Assembly: GCF_001598795.1 (NCBI RefSeq)
Contig: NZ_BCZP01000002.1
Location: 240,001 to 272,000, forward strand
Reading direction: 5' to 3'
Origin: Delftia acidovorans NBRC 14950
GTDB lineage: Bacteria > Pseudomonadota > Gammaproteobacteria > Burkholderiales > Burkholderiaceae_C
DNA: 32,000 nt
The notes below the pieces were generated by a model. That model had not been told where the DNA came from, ran no database searches, and was given only the letters and a program-made list of their open reading frames with translations. Position numbers and translations under genes: made by a program. This document shows positions 15,422-21,967 of this stretch, piece after piece (within the stretch, counting starts at the first letter, position 1; each line of letters begins with the position of its first letter).

Positions 15422-16138
15422 TCATTCCTCCGTGCCGGCGTTCCAGAAGGCCTGCAGCACGCCGGGCAGGGCCTCGATGGCGGCGATCACGCGGTCGAGC
15501 TCGTCGGAGTCCACCGAGGTGGCGTAGAGCATGGCCTCGATCTCCGTGTCCTGCGGGCCGAAGGCATGGGTTTCCAAGCCGCGCACGGGGTAGCTGGCGT
15601 TCTCCAGCAGCTCCAGCATCTGCTCGCGCACATCGCCCTGGGCGCCGCGGTGGCAGATGGCGTAGACGTAGTAGGTCGACTCCGTGGATTCGTCATCCAC
15701 CGGGCGGCGGTTGATGCGGTTGACCACGGGGCGCAGCAACGTATTGCTGGCCAGCACGAACAGCGTGGCCAGGCCCGCCTCGGCCACCAGGCTGGCGCCC
15801 GCGCAGGCGCCCACGGCGGCCGAGCCCCACAGCGTGGCCGCCGTGTTCAGCCCGGTGATGTTGGCCCCTTCCTTCATGATGGCGCCCGCGCCCAGGAAGC
15901 CCACGCCCGAGACCACGTAGGCCACCACGCGCGTGGCGCCCTCGGCCCCGCCCAGGCGCACGGCCAGGTCCACGAAGACGGCCGCGCCCACGGCGACCAG
16001 GGTGTTGGTGCGCAGCCCCGCCGTGCGCTGGCGCACCTGGCGCTCCAGGCCGATGAGGGCGCCGAACACGAAGGCCGTGGTCAGGCTGACGAAGGTGTCC
16101 AGCATGGCGCCGGGGTTGAGGTTCTGCAGGGCCTGCAT
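15422..16138 (-). CDS. mgtC: MgtC/SapB family membrane protein with an ACT-like C-terminal domain
   Basis: FGALIGLERQVRQRTAGLRTNTLVAVGAAVF is the MgtC family signature. The gene lies directly downstream of the P-type Mg ATPase. Confidence 0.85.
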   Translation of the reverse strand: MQALQNLNPGAMLDTFVSLTTAFVFGALIGLERQVRQRTAGLRTNTLVAVGAAVFVDLAVRLGGAEGATRVVAYVVSGVGFLGAGAIMKEGANITGLNTAATLWGSAAVGACAGASLVAEAGLATLFVLASNTLLRPVVNRINRRPVDDESTESTYYVYAICHRGAQGDVREQMLELLENASYPVRGLETHAFGPQDTEIEAMLYATSVDSDELDRVIAAIEALPGVLQAFWNAGTEE

Positions 16139-16201: not shown

Positions 16202-18961
16202 TCACTGCCAGCCGTAGCGGCGGATGTAGACGCGCTTGAGCAGCGTGGCCAGGCAAGCGTAGCCCAGCAATATGGCAATCATCCACGGGAAGTAGGCCGC
16301 CGGCAGCGCCTGCAGCTTGAAGTAGCCGGCCAGCGGCCCCATCGGCAGGAAGATGCCGGCCGCCATCACGGCCGCCGTGGCCAGCAGCAGCGGCCAGGAC
16401 GGGCGGCTTTGCAGGAAGGGGATCCTGGGCGTGCGGATCATGTGCACGATCAGCGTCTGCGTGAGCAGCCCGATGACGAACCAGCCCGACTGGAACAGCG
16501 TCTGCTGCTCGGGCGTGTTGGCGGCGAAGACGAACCACATCAGCGCGAAGGTCAGGATGTCGAACAGCGAGCTGATGGGCCCGAAGAACACCATGAAGCG
16601 GCCCAGGTCGGCCGGGTTCCAGCGCAGCGGCTGGCGCACCAGTTCGTCGTCCACGTTGTCGAAGGGGATGGCGATCTGCGAGAGGTCGTACAGCAGGTTC
16701 TGCACCAGCAGGTGCAGCGGCAGCATGGGCAGGAAGGGGATGAAGGCCGAGGCCACCATCACCGAGAACACGTTGCCGAAGTTGGAGCTGGCCGTCATGC
16801 GGATGTACTTCAGCATGTTGCTGAAGGTGCGCCGGCCCTCGATCACGCCCTGCTCCAGCACCATCAGGCTTTTTTCCAGCAGGATGATGTCGGCCGCTTC
16901 CTTGGCGATGTCCACGGCGCTGTCCACGCTGATGCCGATGTCGGCCGCGCGCAGGGCCGGTGCGTCGTTGATGCCGTCGCCCATGAAGCCGGTGATGTGG
17001 CCGTTGGCGCGCAGCGCATGCACGATGCGCTCCTTGTGCAGCGGCGTGAGCCGGGCGAACAGCTGGTGCCGTTCCACCGTCTGGCGCAGCATCTCGTCGT
17101 TCATGTGCTCGATCTGCGTGCCCAGGATGATGTGGTCTGCGGGCAGCCCTACATCGCGGCAGACCTTGGCGGCCACCAGTTCGTTGTCGCCGGTCAGCAG
17201 CTTGACGGCCACGCCGTGCGCGGCCAGGGCGGCCAGCGCCTCGGCCGTGGTTTCCTTCGGTGGGTCCAGGAAGGCGATGTAGCCGATCAGGGTCAGCTCC
17301 GACTCGTCGGCCACGCCGTAGTCGCTCTTGTGCGGCGGCACTTCCTTCATGGCCACGGCGACCACGCGCAGGCCCTCGCGGTTGAGCTCGCGCGTCACGC
17401 GGCGCACGCGGGCCAGTTGCTCCTCGTCCAGCGGGCGCGTGCCGTCGCCCTCGCGCAGCCGGGTGCACGCGCCCAGGATTTCCTCGACCGCGCCTTTGCA
17501 GATCAGCTCGTGGTGGTGGCCGCGCTCGGCCACCACCACGGACATGCGGCGGCGCTCGAAGTCGAAGGGGATCTCATCGACCTTGCGGTAGTCCTCGGCC
17601 AGGCGCATCTGGGTGTGCAGCTCCACATGCTCGAGCACGGCATGGTCGAGCAGGTTCTTCAGGCCGGTCTGGTAGTGGCTGTTGAGGTAGGCGAAGCGCA
17701 GCGTCTCGTCGCACGGCTGGCCGAAGGCGTCGGTGTGGCGCTCCAGCACGATGCGGTCCTGGGTCAGCGTGCCGGTCTTGTCGGTGCACAGCACGTCCAT
17801 GGCACCGAAGTTCTGGATGGCGTCCAGCCGCTTGACCACGACCTTGCGGCGCGACAGCACCACGGCGCCCTTGGCCAGGGTGGAGGTCACGATCATGGGC
17901 AGCATCTCGGGCGTCAGGCCCACGGCCACGGACAGCGCGAACAGGAAGGCCTCGGCCCAGTCGCCCTTGGTGTAGCCGTTGATGAACAGCACCACGGGCA
18001 CCATCACGGCCGCAAAGCGGATCAGCAGCCAGCTGACGCTGTTGACCCCGGTCTCGAAGGCCGTGGGCGCGCGGTCGTTGGAGGTCACCCGCGTGGCAAT
18101 GGTGCCGAAATAGCTGCGGTTGCCCGTGGCCAGCACCACGGCCAGCGCCGTGCCCGAGACCACGTTGGTGCCCATGAACAGCAGGTTGCTGGCGTCCAGC
18201 ACGCCGGTGCCATTCGATGCACTGGCGTCGGCGCGCTTTTCCACGGGCAGGGATTCGCCGGTCATGGCGGACTGGCTCACGAACAGGTCCTTGGCGCTGA
18301 GCACGCGGCAGTCGGCAGGAATCATGTCCCCGGCCGACAGCACCACGAAATCGCCGGGTACGACCTCGCGCAGCGGCACCTCGTAGCGGCGCGCCTGCTG
18401 GCCGAAGCCGCTGTGCGGGGCATCTGCGGAGTCGGCATCTGCAGGGGCCGGTGGGCCGCCATTGCGGCGCAGCACCGTGGCCGTGCTGCTGACCATGGCC
18501 TTGAGCCGCGCGGCGGCGCGGTTGGAGCGGCCTTCCTGCACAAAGCGCAGCAGCGTGGACAGCAGCACCATGGAGGCGATGACGACCGTGGCCTTCATGT
18601 CCTCCGTGGCGTAGGAGACCACGGCCAGCAGCGTCAGCAGCAGGTTGAAGGGATTGCGGTAGCAGTACCACAGGTGCAGCCAGCCGGGCAGCGGCTTTTC
18701 GTGCTCGACCTCGTTGGGGCCGAGACGTGCGAGCGCGGCGCGGGCCTGCTCGCGGGTCAGGCCGTCCTCGCTGGAGCCGGTGCGCGCCAGCACGGCGGCA
18801 ATGTCATCGCGCGAGGCGCGCAGCAGCTCGCGCGTGAGGGTCGGCGATACCGAGCACGAGTGGTGCACGGCCGTGCCCGAGGGCAGGGCATTGCGCCGGA
18901 ACAGCCCCAGGGCGTGGCGGCTGCGCAGAAATGCCTGGAACAGGTGCTTGAGGCTTTTCAT
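16202..18961 (-). CDS. mgtA: Magnesium-translocating P-type ATPase (MgtA/MgtB type)
   Basis: 919 aa with DKTGTLT, TGDN and GDGINDAPAL. The N-terminus LTREQARAALARLGPNEVEHEK and overall length are typical of P3B Mg2+ ATPases. SD gggagg lies 7 nt upstream. Confidence 0.95.
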   Translation of the reverse strand: MKSLKHLFQAFLRSRHALGLFRRNALPSGTAVHHSCSVSPTLTRELLRASRDDIAAVLARTGSSEDGLTREQARAALARLGPNEVEHEKPLPGWLHLWYCYRNPFNLLLTLLAVVSYATEDMKATVVIASMVLLSTLLRFVQEGRSNRAAARLKAMVSSTATVLRRNGGPPAPADADSADAPHSGFGQQARRYEVPLREVVPGDFVVLSAGDMIPADCRVLSAKDLFVSQSAMTGESLPVEKRADASASNGTGVLDASNLLFMGTNVVSGTALAVVLATGNRSYFGTIATRVTSNDRAPTAFETGVNSVSWLLIRFAAVMVPVVLFINGYTKGDWAEAFLFALSVAVGLTPEMLPMIVTSTLAKGAVVLSRRKVVVKRLDAIQNFGAMDVLCTDKTGTLTQDRIVLERHTDAFGQPCDETLRFAYLNSHYQTGLKNLLDHAVLEHVELHTQMRLAEDYRKVDEIPFDFERRRMSVVVAERGHHHELICKGAVEEILGACTRLREGDGTRPLDEEQLARVRRVTRELNREGLRVVAVAMKEVPPHKSDYGVADESELTLIGYIAFLDPPKETTAEALAALAAHGVAVKLLTGDNELVAAKVCRDVGLPADHIILGTQIEHMNDEMLRQTVERHQLFARLTPLHKERIVHALRANGHITGFMGDGINDAPALRAADIGISVDSAVDIAKEAADIILLEKSLMVLEQGVIEGRRTFSNMLKYIRMTASSNFGNVFSVMVASAFIPFLPMLPLHLLVQNLLYDLSQIAIPFDNVDDELVRQPLRWNPADLGRFMVFFGPISSLFDILTFALMWFVFAANTPEQQTLFQSGWFVIGLLTQTLIVHMIRTPRIPFLQSRPSWPLLLATAAVMAAGIFLPMGPLAGYFKLQALPAAYFPWMIAILLGYACLATLLKRVYIRRYGWQ

Positions 18962-18979
18962 GGTGACCTCCCTGGCGGC

Positions 18980-19390
18980 TCAGGCCTGGCTCGAACGAAG
19001 GGTGGCGCGCAGCCAGTGCCAGTTGCGCTGGCAGGCGCACAGCAGGCGGCGGCGCAGCGGCGGGCGGGTCACGGTGGCCGACTGCAGCCATTGGCGACGC
19101 GCATGGGCAGGCAGGTGGCGGTAGACCTCGGCGCGCTCCTGCGCCGCCAGCAGGGACAGAACGTCGGCCTGCTGGCGCTGCGTGAGCGCCACGAGGGCAG
19201 GGGCGAAGAGACCGGGGCCGTGTTGCTGCAGCAGGGCGTGCAGTTGTCCGGTATGGCGTGCCGCAATGGCGGCTTGCAGGGCCAGCTGCAGGGTGCTGGC
19301 GCGGGAGGTGTGGCTGGCGCGTGTGGAGACGGGTGCTGTGGCGGGCGTGGTTGCCGGCGTGGTGCGCAGCGCGGTGATGACGTGTTGCAT
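18980..19390 (-). CDS. Hypothetical 136-aa protein upstream of mgtA; possible MgtE N-terminal-domain-like helical protein
   Basis: High GC3 coding frame. The stop is 18 nt before the mgtA ATG. The segment LHALLQQHGPGLFAPALVALTQRQQADVLSLLAAQERAEVYRHLP loosely resembles the MgtE_N helical repeat, but this is my recollection of the pattern and not a search result. The start was taken at MQHVITAL (ATG 19390). Confidence 0.45.
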   Translation of the reverse strand: MQHVITALRTTPATTPATAPVSTRASHTSRASTLQLALQAAIAARHTGQLHALLQQHGPGLFAPALVALTQRQQADVLSLLAAQERAEVYRHLPAHARRQWLQSATVTRPPLRRRLLCACQRNWHWLRATLRSSQA

Positions 19391-19427
19391 GGCGGGCTTC
19401 TTTCGTTGCGGCCGAAAGAAGCCCGCC
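19391..19427 (-). promoter_or_regulatory. Very stable 15-bp stem-loop abutting the start codon of the 136-aa ORF (possible RBS-sequestering structure)
   Basis: ggcgggcttctttcg / cgaaagaagcccgcc form a perfect 15-bp stem with a 7-nt loop. On the mRNA strand the 3-prime arm ends at the nucleotide before the ATG, and no U-tract follows. Confidence 0.5.
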
Positions 19428-19436
19428 ATCTGTCCA

Positions 19437-19556
19437 TCAATGGACGTGCGCGGGTCTCCCGGCCGGGGCCTTGGGATGAGGCGGAAGGGCCGCAGGCATG
19501 TGCGGCCGGACCGTATCGGAGGGGTCAGGGCAAGATCGACTCGGATCGGGGTCCAT
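19437..19556 (-). CDS. Candidate proline-rich leader peptide ORF (39 aa: MDPDPSRSCPDPSDTVRPHMPAALPPHPKAPAGRPAHVH)
   Basis: The canonical SD aaaggag sits 7 nt upstream of the ATG at 19556. 11 of 39 codons are Pro. The stop lies 9 nt upstream of the 15-bp hairpin. This ORF is too short for the supplied track and I translated it by hand. CCN-rich frames are common by chance in high-GC DNA, so confidence is modest. Confidence 0.35.
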   Translation of the reverse strand: MDPDPSRSCPDPSDTVRPHMPAALPPHPKAPAGRPAHVH

Positions 19557-19604
19557 GGGGGAACTCCTTTCTGACGATGGGGCGGACAAGGCTGCGGCGC
19601 GCGT

Positions 19605-19841
19605 TCAGCGCGGCTGCAGGCTCAGAAAGCTGCGGATGCGGTGCGTGGGCCAGTGGGTCTGCAGGTCCAGGTGCATGGCGTGCTCCATGGCCGAAGGGGC
19701 CTGGGCTTGCATCTGTGCCTGTGCCTTGGCCTGCATTGCTGCCTGGGAGGCAGCCACGCGCGTACCGGTGGCGCCGGGGCAGGGCGCGGCAGTGGCAGGC
19801 TGCAGGCGTTGCATTGCGGGGCGGACGAACGGTGTGGACAT
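19605..19841 (-). CDS. Small hypothetical protein (78 aa), Ala/Gln-rich centre and His-rich C-terminal part
   Basis: Strong SD aaggaga 5 nt upstream of the ATG at 19841. Third-position G+C is high and similar to neighbouring genes. It has the same orientation as the mgtA operon. No family recognised. Confidence 0.5.
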   Translation of the reverse strand: MSTPFVRPAMQRLQPATAAPCPGATGTRVAASQAAMQAKAQAQMQAQAPSAMEHAMHLDLQTHWPTHRIRSFLSLQPR

Positions 19842-20092
19842 GGCTTTCTCCTTGGCGAACCAGGAAGACCGCCGTAGGCAGGGCCGTCAAGCAGCGTGGG
19901 CCGGGTGCTGCTCGATGGCAGCCACACGGGCACGCGGTCAGTGATCAACAGCCATTGGAATCTTCGGTGCAGGAGCGGCGTGCCTGATGCAGGCCAAGCG
20001 CCACTGCAGCGCCGGGCGGCGCGAAGATCCAAGGGGAAACGCAGCAATGGATGGAAGCCGACCGACATGGCCGCTCCCATCACAGGAGTCGG

Positions 20093-21967
20093 TCAGTCAG
20101 CCAGCAGCGAAGCCATTGCGGCGCGCTGTTTGTCACTGGTTGAACTGGCACTGTCCACGGAGGACTCCTGAAAATGCGATCCCTCGATTGTGCCTTGCGA
20201 GCTGCTTCGGGTCAACCCTGATGTCGATGCGCCACGGGCCAGCCAGCCCTGCACGATCAGCAGTTGCGCCGCGTAGTAGGTGGACAGCACGCCGGCTTGC
20301 GCGCCGTCGAAGGGCTGCACAAATCGGTTGATGGCCAGCAGCGAGTCGCTGACCATGAAGAGGCAGGCGCCGATGGCCACGGTCCAGGCGGGCTGGCCGC
20401 CCAGGTGCCTGGCGCGGCCCAGGGCCTGGGCCGCCATCAGCGCAATGACCAGTACATAGGCGGCCACGGGCAGGCGCAGCGCGGCGGGCAGCCCGCCCTG
20501 CCAGAGCACGGCATACATGCCCGCGCCCAGGGCCAGCGTGGCGGCCAGCGAGGGCCGGTGTGCAAACCAGGGTGCGTCCTGGCGCAGCAGCACGATATAG
20601 GCCAGGTGGGCGAGCAGGAAGCTGGCCAGGCCCGGGATGAACAGATCGGGCAGCATCAGGAACACGTCGCCCGCCATCGAGGCCGCCAGCGCCGCGGCCA
20701 GCCAGCAGGCGCCGCGCGCGGGTTTCGCCAGTGCCGAGAAGGCCGTGCTGCCGCGCCACAGCTGCATGACGGCGATCAGCGCAAAGACCATGGTCAGCGG
20801 CTTGAACAGCCAGTGCCAGTGCAGCATGTCCAGCGCGGCGGTGGCGGTGGCCAGTGCGCCGGCCTCAATGGCCAGTGCCAGCCACAGGCTGATACGCCCC
20901 TGCATGGCCGCGCCCAGTGCCCACTGGCAGGCCAGCAGCACGCCAAACCACAGCGCATTGCGCGCCGTCGAGGACTGGTCGGCATGCCACAGAAACAGCG
21001 ACACCCCGGCGATCAGCGCCACGAACTGCAAGCCCGCAAACCAGCGCAGGCTGCGCTGCATGTCGGGTGCGTAGAGCACGCGGTGCGCGTCCAAGTCGAA
21101 GGCCGGCCTGGGAAAGCGCTGCGCCACGTCGGCAGGGCGCCACCCGGGCGGCTTGAGCCAGACGCGCAGCTTGTCGCTCCAGCGCCGCGCATGCCAGCTG
21201 TCATGGATGAGTTGCCGGTACACCACGGCGTTGGCCCACAGCGGATCCCAGCTTTGCAGCAGGCCGCGCGTGCCGTAGACGCAGGGCTCGCTGTCGTCCT
21301 CGGGCTTGAAGGTGCCGAACATGCGGTCCCAGACGATGAGGATGCCGCCGTAGTTCCTGTCCAGGTAGGCGTCGTTGACTGCGTGGTGCACGCGGTGGTT
21401 GCTGGGCGCGCAGAACCAGCGGTCGAACCAGCCCAGACGCCGAACCTGCTCGGTATGGACCCAGAACTGGTAGAGCAGGTCTATCAGTCCCACGATGGCA
21501 AACACCAGCGGCGGCACGCCCGCCAGCGCCATGGGCAGGTAGAACAGCCAGCCCAGCAGCGCGCCCGAGCTGGTCTGGCGCAGCGCCGTCGACAGGTTGT
21601 AGTCCTGGCTCTGGTGGTGCACGGCGTGGGCTGCCCACAGCACGGCCACCTCGTGGCCCATGCGGTGAAGCCAGTAGTAGCAGAAGTCGTAGAACAGCAG
21701 GGCCAGCAGCCAGCCGGGAATGCTGGTCCAGAAGGCATCGTTGCGCCACAGCGCCAGGTGCTCGAAGGCCAGCGTGTACAGGCCCACGCGCAGCAGCGTG
21801 GTGAAGACGGCGCTGGTCTGGCTGAGCATGCCCAGGCTGATGGAGCTGATGGCGTCGGCCAGCCGGTAGGCATTGCGCCCGCGCCACAGGCTCACGCCCC
21901 ATTCCAGCGCGATCAGCAGCAAAAAGGCAGGCGTGGCGAAGACAATGACTTGGCTGGGTGAGAGCAT
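20093..21967 (-). CDS. Fusion protein: N-terminal fatty-acid hydroxylase/sterol desaturase-family domain (alkylglycerol monooxygenase-like) plus C-terminal YhhN-family lysoplasmalogenase domain
   Basis: The N-terminal half has histidine boxes HRMGHE, HAVHH and HRVHH plus WDRMFGTF. The C-terminal half has YhhN motifs FKPLTMV, AGDVFLML, GLASFLLAHLAYI, LFMVSDSLLA and TYYAAQLLI. It is a single uninterrupted 624-codon ORF. Confidence 0.85.
   Translation of the reverse strand: MLSPSQVIVFATPAFLLLIALEWGVSLWRGRNAYRLADAISSISLGMLSQTSAVFTTLLRVGLYTLAFEHLALWRNDAFWTSIPGWLLALLFYDFCYYWLHRMGHEVAVLWAAHAVHHQSQDYNLSTALRQTSSGALLGWLFYLPMALAGVPPLVFAIVGLIDLLYQFWVHTEQVRRLGWFDRWFCAPSNHRVHHAVNDAYLDRNYGGILIVWDRMFGTFKPEDDSEPCVYGTRGLLQSWDPLWANAVVYRQLIHDSWHARRWSDKLRVWLKPPGWRPADVAQRFPRPAFDLDAHRVLYAPDMQRSLRWFAGLQFVALIAGVSLFLWHADQSSTARNALWFGVLLACQWALGAAMQGRISLWLALAIEAGALATATAALDMLHWHWLFKPLTMVFALIAVMQLWRGSTAFSALAKPARGACWLAAALAASMAGDVFLMLPDLFIPGLASFLLAHLAYIVLLRQDAPWFAHRPSLAATLALGAGMYAVLWQGGLPAALRLPVAAYVLVIALMAAQALGRARHLGGQPAWTVAIGACLFMVSDSLLAINRFVQPFDGAQAGVLSTYYAAQLLIVQGWLARGASTSGLTRSSSQGTIEGSHFQESSVDSASSTSDKQRAAMASLLAD

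Follow-up and report, generated by a model that had tools for sequence, protein, structure and literature searches.

The 32,000-nucleotide stretch of Delftia acidovorans NBRC 14950 analysed here (contig NZ_BCZP01000002.1, positions 240,001 to 272,000; hereafter the window) carries, upstream of the gene for the magnesium-translocating P-type ATPase MgtA, a 39-codon open reading frame (ORF) that begins with MDPDP. Comparative sequence analysis identifies this ORF as a genuine, conserved leader of the MgtL type. We propose, with a probability of about 0.6, that it is part of a translation-sensing attenuator whose output stage differs from the enterobacterial one: completion of the leader would select between two competing hairpins, a sequestor that buries the Shine–Dalgarno sequence (SD) and start codon of the next gene, orf136, and an anti-sequestor that leaves them free.

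MgtL is the textbook case of the ribosome serving as a Mg2+ sensor. In Escherichia coli, the EPDP motif that follows the initiator methionine of MgtL destabilises the 70S ribosome from within, and translation aborts within MEPDPT. This destabilisation is stronger at low Mg2+, triggers up-regulation of mgtA and needs a nearly empty exit tunnel. In Salmonella, slowed translation of mgtL (at low Mg2+, at proline codons or upon loss of elongation factor EF-P) uncouples translation from transcription and blocks the attenuator structure; at high Mg2+, translation of mgtL is followed by refolding of the leader and Rho-dependent termination.

The elements of the Delftia locus that the argument needs are listed here; coordinates of the leader, the hairpins and the operon are window positions on the minus strand throughout (nt, nucleotides; aa, amino acids).

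19564..19570, minus: leader SD AAAGGAG, with a 7-nt spacer to the leader ATG, read from the sequence
19437..19556, minus: leader ORF, 39 codons plus TGA, MDPDPSRSCPDPSDTVRPHMPAALPPHPKAPAGRPAHVH; ATG at 19556, TGA at 19439-19437
19488..19507, minus: internal leader hairpin GGCCGCA-CAUGCC-UGCGGCC in codons 17-23, from RNAalifold and covariation
19446..19464, minus: segment 2, leader codons 31-37, GGCCGGGAGACCCGCGCAC, which can pair with the 5′ arm of the sequestor
19410..19464, minus: predicted anti-sequestor hairpin, segment 2 with segment 3, from folding and pairing across 12 loci
19389..19429, minus: predicted sequestor hairpin, segment 3 with segment 4, 17 bp and a 7-nt loop, from folding and pairing across 12 loci
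18980..19390, minus: orf136, first gene of the operon, 136 aa, from homologues; weak MgtE_N similarity
16202..18961, minus: mgtA, magnesium-translocating P-type ATPase, from Pfam and TIGR01524 (1359 bits against a cut-off of 610.75)
15422..16138, minus: mgtC-family gene, last of the unit, from Pfam MgtC and MgtC_SapB_C

A conserved proline-rich leader ahead of mgtA

The first-pass annotation of this DNA had pointed to an aaaggag SD and a 7-nt spacer in front of a 39-codon ORF with 11 prolines, and had likened the start of that ORF to Salmonella MgtL. All of these features are present, and the MgtL sequence that it quoted is correct. Scanning the six frames of the window gave 184 ATG-initiated ORFs of 30-60 codons, among which the leader alone reaches at least 28% proline and alone begins with M[DE]P[DE]P; an SD precedes three of them, the leader included. 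Its sensor part is the N-terminal MDPDP...CPD. As with enterobacterial MgtL, mgtA is preceded in the same orientation by a short ORF that has proline codons and an SD of its own (here SD and ATG at 19570-19554), and [DE]PDP directly follows the initiator methionine (here MDPDP). The two differ in size and ending. MgtL has 17 codons and a basic, hydrophobic C-terminal tail, whereas the Delftia leader has 39 residues (36 in some relatives), lacks such a tail and ends in ...APAGRPAHVH.

NCBIfam has no model that matches the leader peptide, and Rfam at gathering scores matched nothing in the window; a permissive scan of 18800-20300 at E<=10 returned only spurious microRNA and small RNA matches. 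Unlike the enterobacterial mgtA leader, the Delftia leader is not matched by the Rfam Mg_sensor covariance model either. In a collection of 15 billion proteins, the leader peptides were not found save for one 36-aa 'hypothetical protein'.

Delftia-type loci for the ORF comparison were the window, D. tsuruhatensis NBRC 16741 (L001), L081-L091 and L092-L102, with 12 sequences in the alignment (A3). The window MgtA is identical, over the best segment, to that of NBRC 16741, and the leader region is 96% identical. Diverged Delftia-type loci were reached via homologues of the 136-aa orf136 protein (66-99% protein identity), and a metagenome scan added 48 loci. The ORF, SD, TGA and hairpin are retained in at least 20 Delftia-type loci, in which indels are in frame only; the leader has 36 or 39 codons, a difference of one 9-nt indel. 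Across the 12 aligned loci the leader SD, AGAAAGGAG, is unchanged. An invariant N terminus, MDPDP[SG]RSCP[DE], is followed by a highly variable middle and a conserved end. An MDPDP ORF also lies directly upstream in 45 of the 45 metagenomic loci of the orf136 family that have enough upstream DNA, a set that includes a Stenotrophomonas-type branch with leaders of 29-31 codons. Thus the start, SD, stop and frame are conserved, and M[DE]PDP is common to this leader and enterobacterial MgtL, in line with the MgtL-like leader first suspected. The expectation that ORF, proline codons and hairpin be conserved with compensatory changes was borne out in part: ORF and hairpin are kept, and the hairpin shows covariation in the Stenotrophomonas type, with none in the Delftia clade.

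In a set of 80 species loci, 17 have ATG-GAN-CCN-GAY-CC upstream of mgtA in the sense orientation, whereas none of the 80 has it on the reverse complement. Ten of the 17 are Enterobacterales with classical MgtL, and the others are Delftia, four Stenotrophomonas, Bordetella and Sapientia; the element is not limited to the one betaproteobacterium in which it had been noticed. In Achromobacter, the upstream ORF has DPDP at residues 6-9 and not straight after the methionine. Codons change synonymously between lineages (GAC/GAT/GAA, CCC/CCA/CCT and CCG/CCT/CCC) and the M[DE]PDP peptide is retained, which argues that selection acts on the peptide.

These comparative data speak against the null hypothesis of the first-pass annotation, a CCN-rich frame that arose by chance in 70% G+C DNA beside an unrelated structural palindrome. 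Such DNA does keep frames open: the +1 frame is likewise free of stops in 11 of the 12 loci, so that openness of the ORF is weak evidence, and the middle of the peptide is unconserved. However, a chance frame would not account for a conserved SD, ATG, N-terminal motif and TGA with indels in frame only, for a motif that recurs upstream of mgtA in distant lineages through synonymous changes, for the 45/45 co-occurrence with the orf136 family, for an ORF that is the only one of its kind among 184, or for a palindrome that is not repeated in the window. We regard it as extremely improbable. A repetitive extragenic palindromic (REP)-like repeat was rejected as well, as the palindrome arm is unique to this site within the window.

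The C-terminal end of the leader follows a different pattern. The ending ...AGRPAHVH-UGA occurs only in the Delftia clade, and elsewhere the leaders end in GRFLSV, RRSLPA or GPCPHA. Because these C-terminal peptides differ between lineages, conservation of the distal leader is placed at the RNA level. A TnaC-type C-terminal arrest peptide was rejected, given that the ending is conserved inside the Delftia clade only and that RNA pairing explains it better. A role in trans for the 39-aa product, such as that of a small protein regulating MgtA or MgtC, is also very unlikely. Small regulators of Mg2+ transporters exist, MgtS, MgtR and MgtU among them, and the Delftia peptide is longer than enterobacterial MgtL (39 versus 17 aa). 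But residues 12-28 are unconserved and variable in length, the C-terminal residues are wholly different between lineages while the RNA pairing potential is retained, and the product has no hydrophobic segment.

Two side observations touch the leader start. A small predicted hairpin (window 19551-19567, minus) joins the leader SD (GGAG) to codons 1-3 (AUGGACCCC); all positions are invariant in the Delftia-type loci, including the synonymous sites of codons 2-10. Initiation at the leader may be under an additional constraint at the RNA level. Separately, other mgtA loci (L019 4540-4683, L022 132-308, L012 2614-2646 and L063/L069) have different upstream ORFs rich in proline and glutamate, such as MPNPEPFLKNP... 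and MFPEPILKNPP... in Pseudomonas, MPDPEPSPPA in Azonexus and MPSALDPDPRL... in Achromobacter, which may be further variants of the same sensing principle.

Two competing hairpins predicted in three lineages

The hairpin downstream of the leader had been described as a 15-bp stem 9 nt past the stop. The 15-bp core is there; the full stem, however, has 17 bp and begins 7 nt past the stop. This sequestor is a perfect pairing of ATGGCGGGCTTCTTTCG (19429-19413) with CGAAAGAAGCCCGCCAT (19405-19389) across a 7-nt loop, with a predicted energy of -32.4 kcal/mol (z = -7.0; 0 of 200 shuffles equally stable). Its 3′ arm holds an SD-like sequence, GAAAGAAG (19397-19404), as well as the first two letters (A and U) of the orf136 start codon (19390), and thus buries the ribosome-binding region of the next gene, as the first reading had it. 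The next gene is orf136, and not mgtA, which that reading had missed. Across the 12 Delftia-type loci, 95% of cells in the sequestor are paired. In four of them the 3′ arm reads GAAAGGAG, a better SD, and pairing is retained through G-U. A consensus promoter and terminator scan found no U-tract or intrinsic terminator after the hairpin, in agreement with the first-pass annotation, which makes control at translation initiation plausible.

The second hairpin had also been missed. It emerged when the 12 aligned sequences were folded as the transcript would stand before synthesis of the 3′ arm. Without that arm, the predicted fold of 12 of 12 sequences joins codons 31-37 of the distal leader (GGCCGGGAGGCCCGCGCAC) to the 5′ arm and the start of the loop (GUGCCGGGCUUCUUUCGGCC), and 94% of cells are paired. 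An apical mini-hairpin (19432-19445) holds the leader stop UGA in its loop. In the window this anti-sequestor has a predicted energy of -32.4 kcal/mol, equal to that of the sequestor (z -4.74; 0/200 shuffles equally stable), and in the other 11 aligned loci it is the more stable of the two, ranging from -24 to -37 kcal/mol, compared with -18 to -26 kcal/mol for the sequestor. The locus thus has the hallmark of an attenuator: two mutually exclusive helices with a common strand, one of them overlapping the leader ORF.

Segment 2 and the 3′ arm form an imperfect direct repeat: each has a stretch of purines, which pairs with CUUCUU, followed by GCCCGC and by CAC or CAU. Segment 2 is nearly invariant at synonymous positions despite the highly variable middle of the ORF. 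Its repeat character explains why its GGGAGG and the surrounding third codon positions are invariant while the ORF middle is scrambled.

Pairing of the same kind is predicted in two other lineages. In an alignment of 35 distinct Stenotrophomonas-type leaders, the sequestor covers the SD (GGAG) and the start region of the orf136 homologue, with 98% of cells paired and covariation at pairs 122-154 (GC 25 / AU 9) and 130-144 (AU 19 / GC 15). The consensus without the 3′ arm gives an anti-sequestor between the distal ORF and the 5′ arm, with 97% paired and variable pairs at 76-130 (UA 18 / CG 12 / UG 3) and 99-122 (UG 25 / UA 8). Columns 122 and 130 covary with both of their partners, as expected for a shared strand. 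The burial of the ribosome-binding region seen in Delftia therefore has an equivalent that covaries. An additional long-range pairing proposed by RNAalifold between the leader start and the 5′ arm (pair 26-122, Stenotrophomonas-type) was not adopted, as its covariation amounts to a single clade split. Bordetella has no orf136 homologue; there, the stop codon is followed by 6 nt and then by a hairpin with the SD of mgtA itself in its 3′ arm, and the distal ORF is complementary to the 5′ arm. SD and start codon are thus paired in the predicted closed structure in Delftia, the Stenotrophomonas type and Bordetella alike.

A third hairpin lies inside the leader ORF. This internal hairpin (19507-19488, 7 bp) falls in the variable middle and shows compensatory changes in three of its seven pairs, with a covariation score of 0.221 against 0.081 in shuffles, none of 500 of which scored as high. 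One possible function is to prevent the C-rich linker from recruiting Rho or from base-pairing with segment 2.

Upstream of the MDPDP leader, 33 Stenotrophomonas-type loci and Bordetella bronchiseptica share a perfect palindrome, (TA)TACCAAGGTA(TA) (4403-4412 in L008/L009, 4700-4709 in L011 and about 105-130 nt upstream of the leader ATG in L103-L138), which none of the Delftia-type loci has. It is a candidate operator of a shared transcription factor. As it is missing from the Delftia type, transcriptional control seems to be lineage-specific despite the common leader.

A proposed co-transcriptional switch

The MDPDP start would act as the sensor, destabilising the translating ribosome and causing early abortion, more so at low Mg2+, and the proline codons would tie elongation to Pro-tRNA and EF-P. 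Segment 3 (19429-19410), common to both hairpins, would form the sequestor with segment 4 and the anti-sequestor with segment 2. With ample Mg2+, the lead ribosome would follow RNA polymerase and sit on segment 2 during synthesis of segments 3 and 4. Once the stop codon is in its A site, the ribosome would cover the RNA from about codon 35 to about 10 nt beyond the stop. This footprint would include the apical mini-hairpin and the 3′ half of segment 2, but no more than 2-3 of the 17 nt of the 5′ arm. Because this ribosome would occupy the competitor and leave at least 14 nt of the 5′ arm free, the sequestor should form, burying the SD and AUG of orf136 and preventing its translation. In its geometry, the Delftia leader would suit a ribosome-dependent attenuator, in that a terminating ribosome would cover segment 2.

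In the opposite state, abortion or stalling at MDPDP or at early proline codons, up to about codon 25, would leave segment 2 free; low Mg2+ and a shortage of proline or of EF-P would be the triggers. Segment 2 would then pair with segment 3 once this is transcribed, ahead of segment 4. With segment 4 single-stranded, orf136 would be translated, and transcription and translation would run on into mgtA and mgtC. A switch that is off when the leader is completed would carry the Salmonella mgtL logic over to a translational gate, and it suits a Mg2+ importer. The sequence features, their conservation, the two competing helices and the covariation of both helices in the Stenotrophomonas type are observed; the response to Mg2+ and proline, the abortion of Delftia ribosomes, the kinetic choice and the involvement of Rho are all steps that we infer.

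The first-pass annotation had drawn the coupling in the other direction: ribosomes that finish the leader would melt the 5′ arm and open the next gene, and ribosomes stalled at proline codons would leave the hairpin closed. Its geometry has some appeal. Stop and hairpin are close together, with 7 nt between them in Delftia and 3-6 nt in Stenotrophomonas and Bordetella, the hairpin does contain an SD and AUG, and equilibrium folding is closed in every state, so that active opening would be needed. However, a ribosome that reaches about 10 nt past the stop would touch 2-3 bp, at most about 3, of a 17-bp stem of -32 kcal/mol that starts 7 nt away, and the same ribosome would cover segment 2, the sole strong competitor of the 3′ arm. 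The melting direction is unsupported on both counts. It would also switch the operon on at high Mg2+ and off at low Mg2+ or upon stalling, which is opposite to the behaviour of Salmonella mgtL and to the needs of a Mg2+ importer, and it leaves unexplained why the distal codons are conserved at the RNA level and covary with the 5′ arm in the sister lineage. We judge this direction quite unlikely, and take completion of the leader to close the switch.

Rho may enter as a second layer of repression. In the first ~130 nt of the orf136 mRNA, C makes up 51-55% and G 19-22%; no other part of the region has so strong a C>G bias, and the composition is rut-like. Judged by this composition, the stretch is likely to be a good Rho loading site when untranslated, with polarity on mgtA and mgtC; in the off state, Rho would probably terminate before these genes are reached. 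A true MgtL-type sensor might instead have a purely transcriptional, Rho-dependent output, with the hairpin as an RNA polymerase pause or a structural element. In Salmonella, Rho acts on mgtA, corA and mgtCBR alike; in Delftia, the hairpin is directly followed by a stretch that is strongly enriched in C and poor in G, and an intrinsic terminator is lacking. Yet three lineages of differing sequence have SD and start codon within the 3′ arm, which points to control of initiation, and we consider a Rho-only output unlikely. A translational gate and Rho polarity are compatible, and the favoured model, the sequestor-based gate, takes Rho polarity as a likely consequence.

Several results weigh against the proposed switch, in addition to the open +1 frame. 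At equilibrium, the sequestor state of the whole naked leader is the more stable by 0-6 kcal/mol, a margin that reaches 14 kcal/mol in the window, where the stem is perfect. Masking ribosome footprints hardly alters the accessibility of the SD at equilibrium. In the Delftia clade, neither helix shows a compensatory double change, and the two helices are there supported by predicted energies and conservation only. The alternative hairpins of Stenotrophomonas and Bordetella are no more stable than shuffles (z -0.75 to -2.0), and the Stenotrophomonas-type covariation may trace to only two or three clade-splitting events. Destabilisation by the nascent motif has been demonstrated for E. coli ribosomes only. 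Finally, the consensus scan found no promoter between the upstream genes and the leader, the sole promoter-like site being inside the upstream yhhN-like gene.

The equilibrium results also narrow the form that the switch can take. The calculations with masked footprints give no switching, which speaks against a simple thermodynamic switch; the proposed switch would therefore have to be kinetic, with the choice made co-transcriptionally. A crude estimate of the direct-path refolding barrier from anti-sequestor to sequestor is 13-19 kcal/mol, and with such a barrier a choice made during transcription could last for the lifetime of the mRNA.

Known leaders and neighbouring genes

The nearest known system is the enterobacterial mgtA leader. 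There, too, the distal ORF takes part in one of two exclusive structures, and the untranslated state is the on state. The off structures differ: the Delftia one would bury the SD and AUG of the next gene, whereas enterobacteria expose a rut site or form attenuator stem-loop B. Further differences from enterobacteria are the position of orf136 between leader and mgtA, the presence of mgtC in the unit and the host, which belongs to the Comamonadaceae and not to the Enterobacterales.

Other leaders share parts of this design. Salmonella mgtCBR, with mgtP and mgtM, likewise places an operon for a Mg2+ transporter and mgtC under a proline-rich leader ORF that acts via alternative stem-loops. As in the mgtP/mgtM layout, a second upstream ORF precedes the proline-rich one in Delftia (orf78, a candidate for a regulatory role). 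However, mgtP and mgtM have no sequence similarity to the Delftia leader, and mgtC comes last in Delftia. An N-terminal MDPDP is not known from mgtP. In the corL-corA system of Salmonella and E. coli, too, a Mg2+ transporter is controlled by whether a short ORF upstream is translated and by how the leader refolds, but the leader peptide is different, the output is Rho-dependent and no MDPDP has been reported. In translational attenuation of ermC and cat, as proposed for Delftia, the SD lies in the 3′ arm, the 5′ arm pairs alternatively with a leader-linked segment, and the behaviour of the ribosome on the leader decides between them. Delftia would differ from these in its signal, which is not an antibiotic-dependent arrest peptide but a presumed abortion or stalling at the ORF start, ~80 nt upstream of the competing segment; and in Delftia the absence of a ribosome from segment 2 would be decisive, whereas in ermC and cat it is the presence of a stalled ribosome on segment 1.

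Full-text literature searches did not link mgtL to Burkholderia, nor to Stenotrophomonas, Bordetella, Delftia or Xanthomonas, and for Pseudomonas returned reviews only. In the literature so searched, MgtL is treated as an enterobacterial device, a statement drawn solely from those full-text searches. The same N-terminal motif stands before mgtA in Comamonadaceae, Alcaligenaceae, Oxalobacteraceae and Xanthomonadales, with what would be a different and simpler output. This suggests a broader idea that we put forward tentatively, as possible rather than probable: M[DE]PDP may have long served Beta- and Gammaproteobacteria as a portable cassette that senses ribosome integrity and Mg2+ and that was wired repeatedly, to Rho and attenuator stem-loops in enterobacteria and to SD-sequestering hairpins in Burkholderiales and Xanthomonadales. 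In Delftia and Stenotrophomonas it would gate a stand-alone, weakly MgtE_N-like protein, which could be a cytosolic, Mg2+-binding regulator of MgtA or MgtC, and orf78 could be a second sensory leader.

The presence of the motif before mgtA in these families, with another output, would mean that nascent-chain-induced destabilisation of the ribosome is an ancient and modular sensing principle, and leaders of 29 to 39 codons at varied distances from their switches would be natural variants for probing what the motif needs. Magnesium homeostasis in opportunists such as Stenotrophomonas, Bordetella, Achromobacter and Delftia may hinge on an ORF that annotation misses. The locus also draws attention to orf136, an uncharacterised small protein with weak MgtE_N similarity that would be co-regulated with MgtA and MgtC.

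orf136 has 40 homologues and is annotated only as 'hypothetical protein'. A gene of this family always lies between the MDPDP leader and mgtA-mgtC, and the order leader-orf136-mgtA-mgtC is identical in all related loci compared. The proteins have 121-139 aa in the Delftia type and 99 aa in Stenotrophomonas (L009 4639-4938). The core LLxQHGPxLFAxxL...RxxADxLSLLxxxERxxVxRHLP is common to orf136 and the 99-aa protein, at 38-45% identity, while the N terminus, encoded by the first ~130 nt, is of low complexity and rich in indels. Of 15 family members, 11 match MgtE_N (PF03448), with a best E of 6.6e-5 and all under the Pfam cut-off, and FliG_M is a related alternative; the window protein itself matches at E 0.018, again under the cut-off. 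The best profile match in the PDB is the N domain of the MgtE channel, which senses Mg2+ (E 0.13). An AlphaFold model is all-helical (pLDDT 70), and its top Foldseek match is 2yvy, the cytosolic domain of MgtE (E 0.66, probability 0.84). These three MgtE_N signals agree, and none is significant alone; a stand-alone MgtE_N-like fold is plausible but unproven.

A longer reading of orf136, of 149 aa from the ATG at 19429 in the 5′ arm, was rejected: relatives have GTG or GCG in place of this codon or have lost it, and five loci carry a TGA (CAA TGA) that ends the frame ahead of the true ATG. The same evidence led us to reject a termination-reinitiation cascade via that ATG.

Further along the operon, mgtA starts 18 nt past the stop of orf136 and has its own SD, GGGAGG. 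The mgtC-family gene matches NF011912 at E 4e-49 and 166.9 bits, under the curated cut-off of 255 for that model. Upstream of the leader lie two more genes.

21967-20093, minus: FA_hydroxylase/YhhN fusion gene, first in the gene order
19841-19605, minus: orf78, a 78-aa ORF between the fusion gene and the leader

The second of these, orf78, has an invariant SD (AAGGAG) and ends 48 nt before the MDPDP ORF. Its N terminus reads M[ST]TPFVRPA, and its middle, rich in glutamine, alanine and methionine, carries in-frame indels that give 66-82 aa in total. Its C terminus, AMHLDLQT[HS]WPTHRIRSFLSLQPR, is invariant, synonymous sites included. The family occurs in Delftia-type genomes only, with 31 proteins, all 'hypothetical'. 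orf78 could encode another leader peptide; alternatively, the MDPDP leader could have its promoter or an RNA element within the 3′ end of orf78. In Variovorax sp. Root411 (L023 4576-4770), a 64-aa ORF upstream of mgtA contains ...LWTTRRIRSFLVLQP..., which resembles the C terminus of orf78 (tblastn, 78% identity over 14 aa, E 0.04). This resemblance hints that an upstream ORF with W-x-T-x-RIRSFL-x-LQP precedes mgtA in other Comamonadaceae that have no MDPDP leader.

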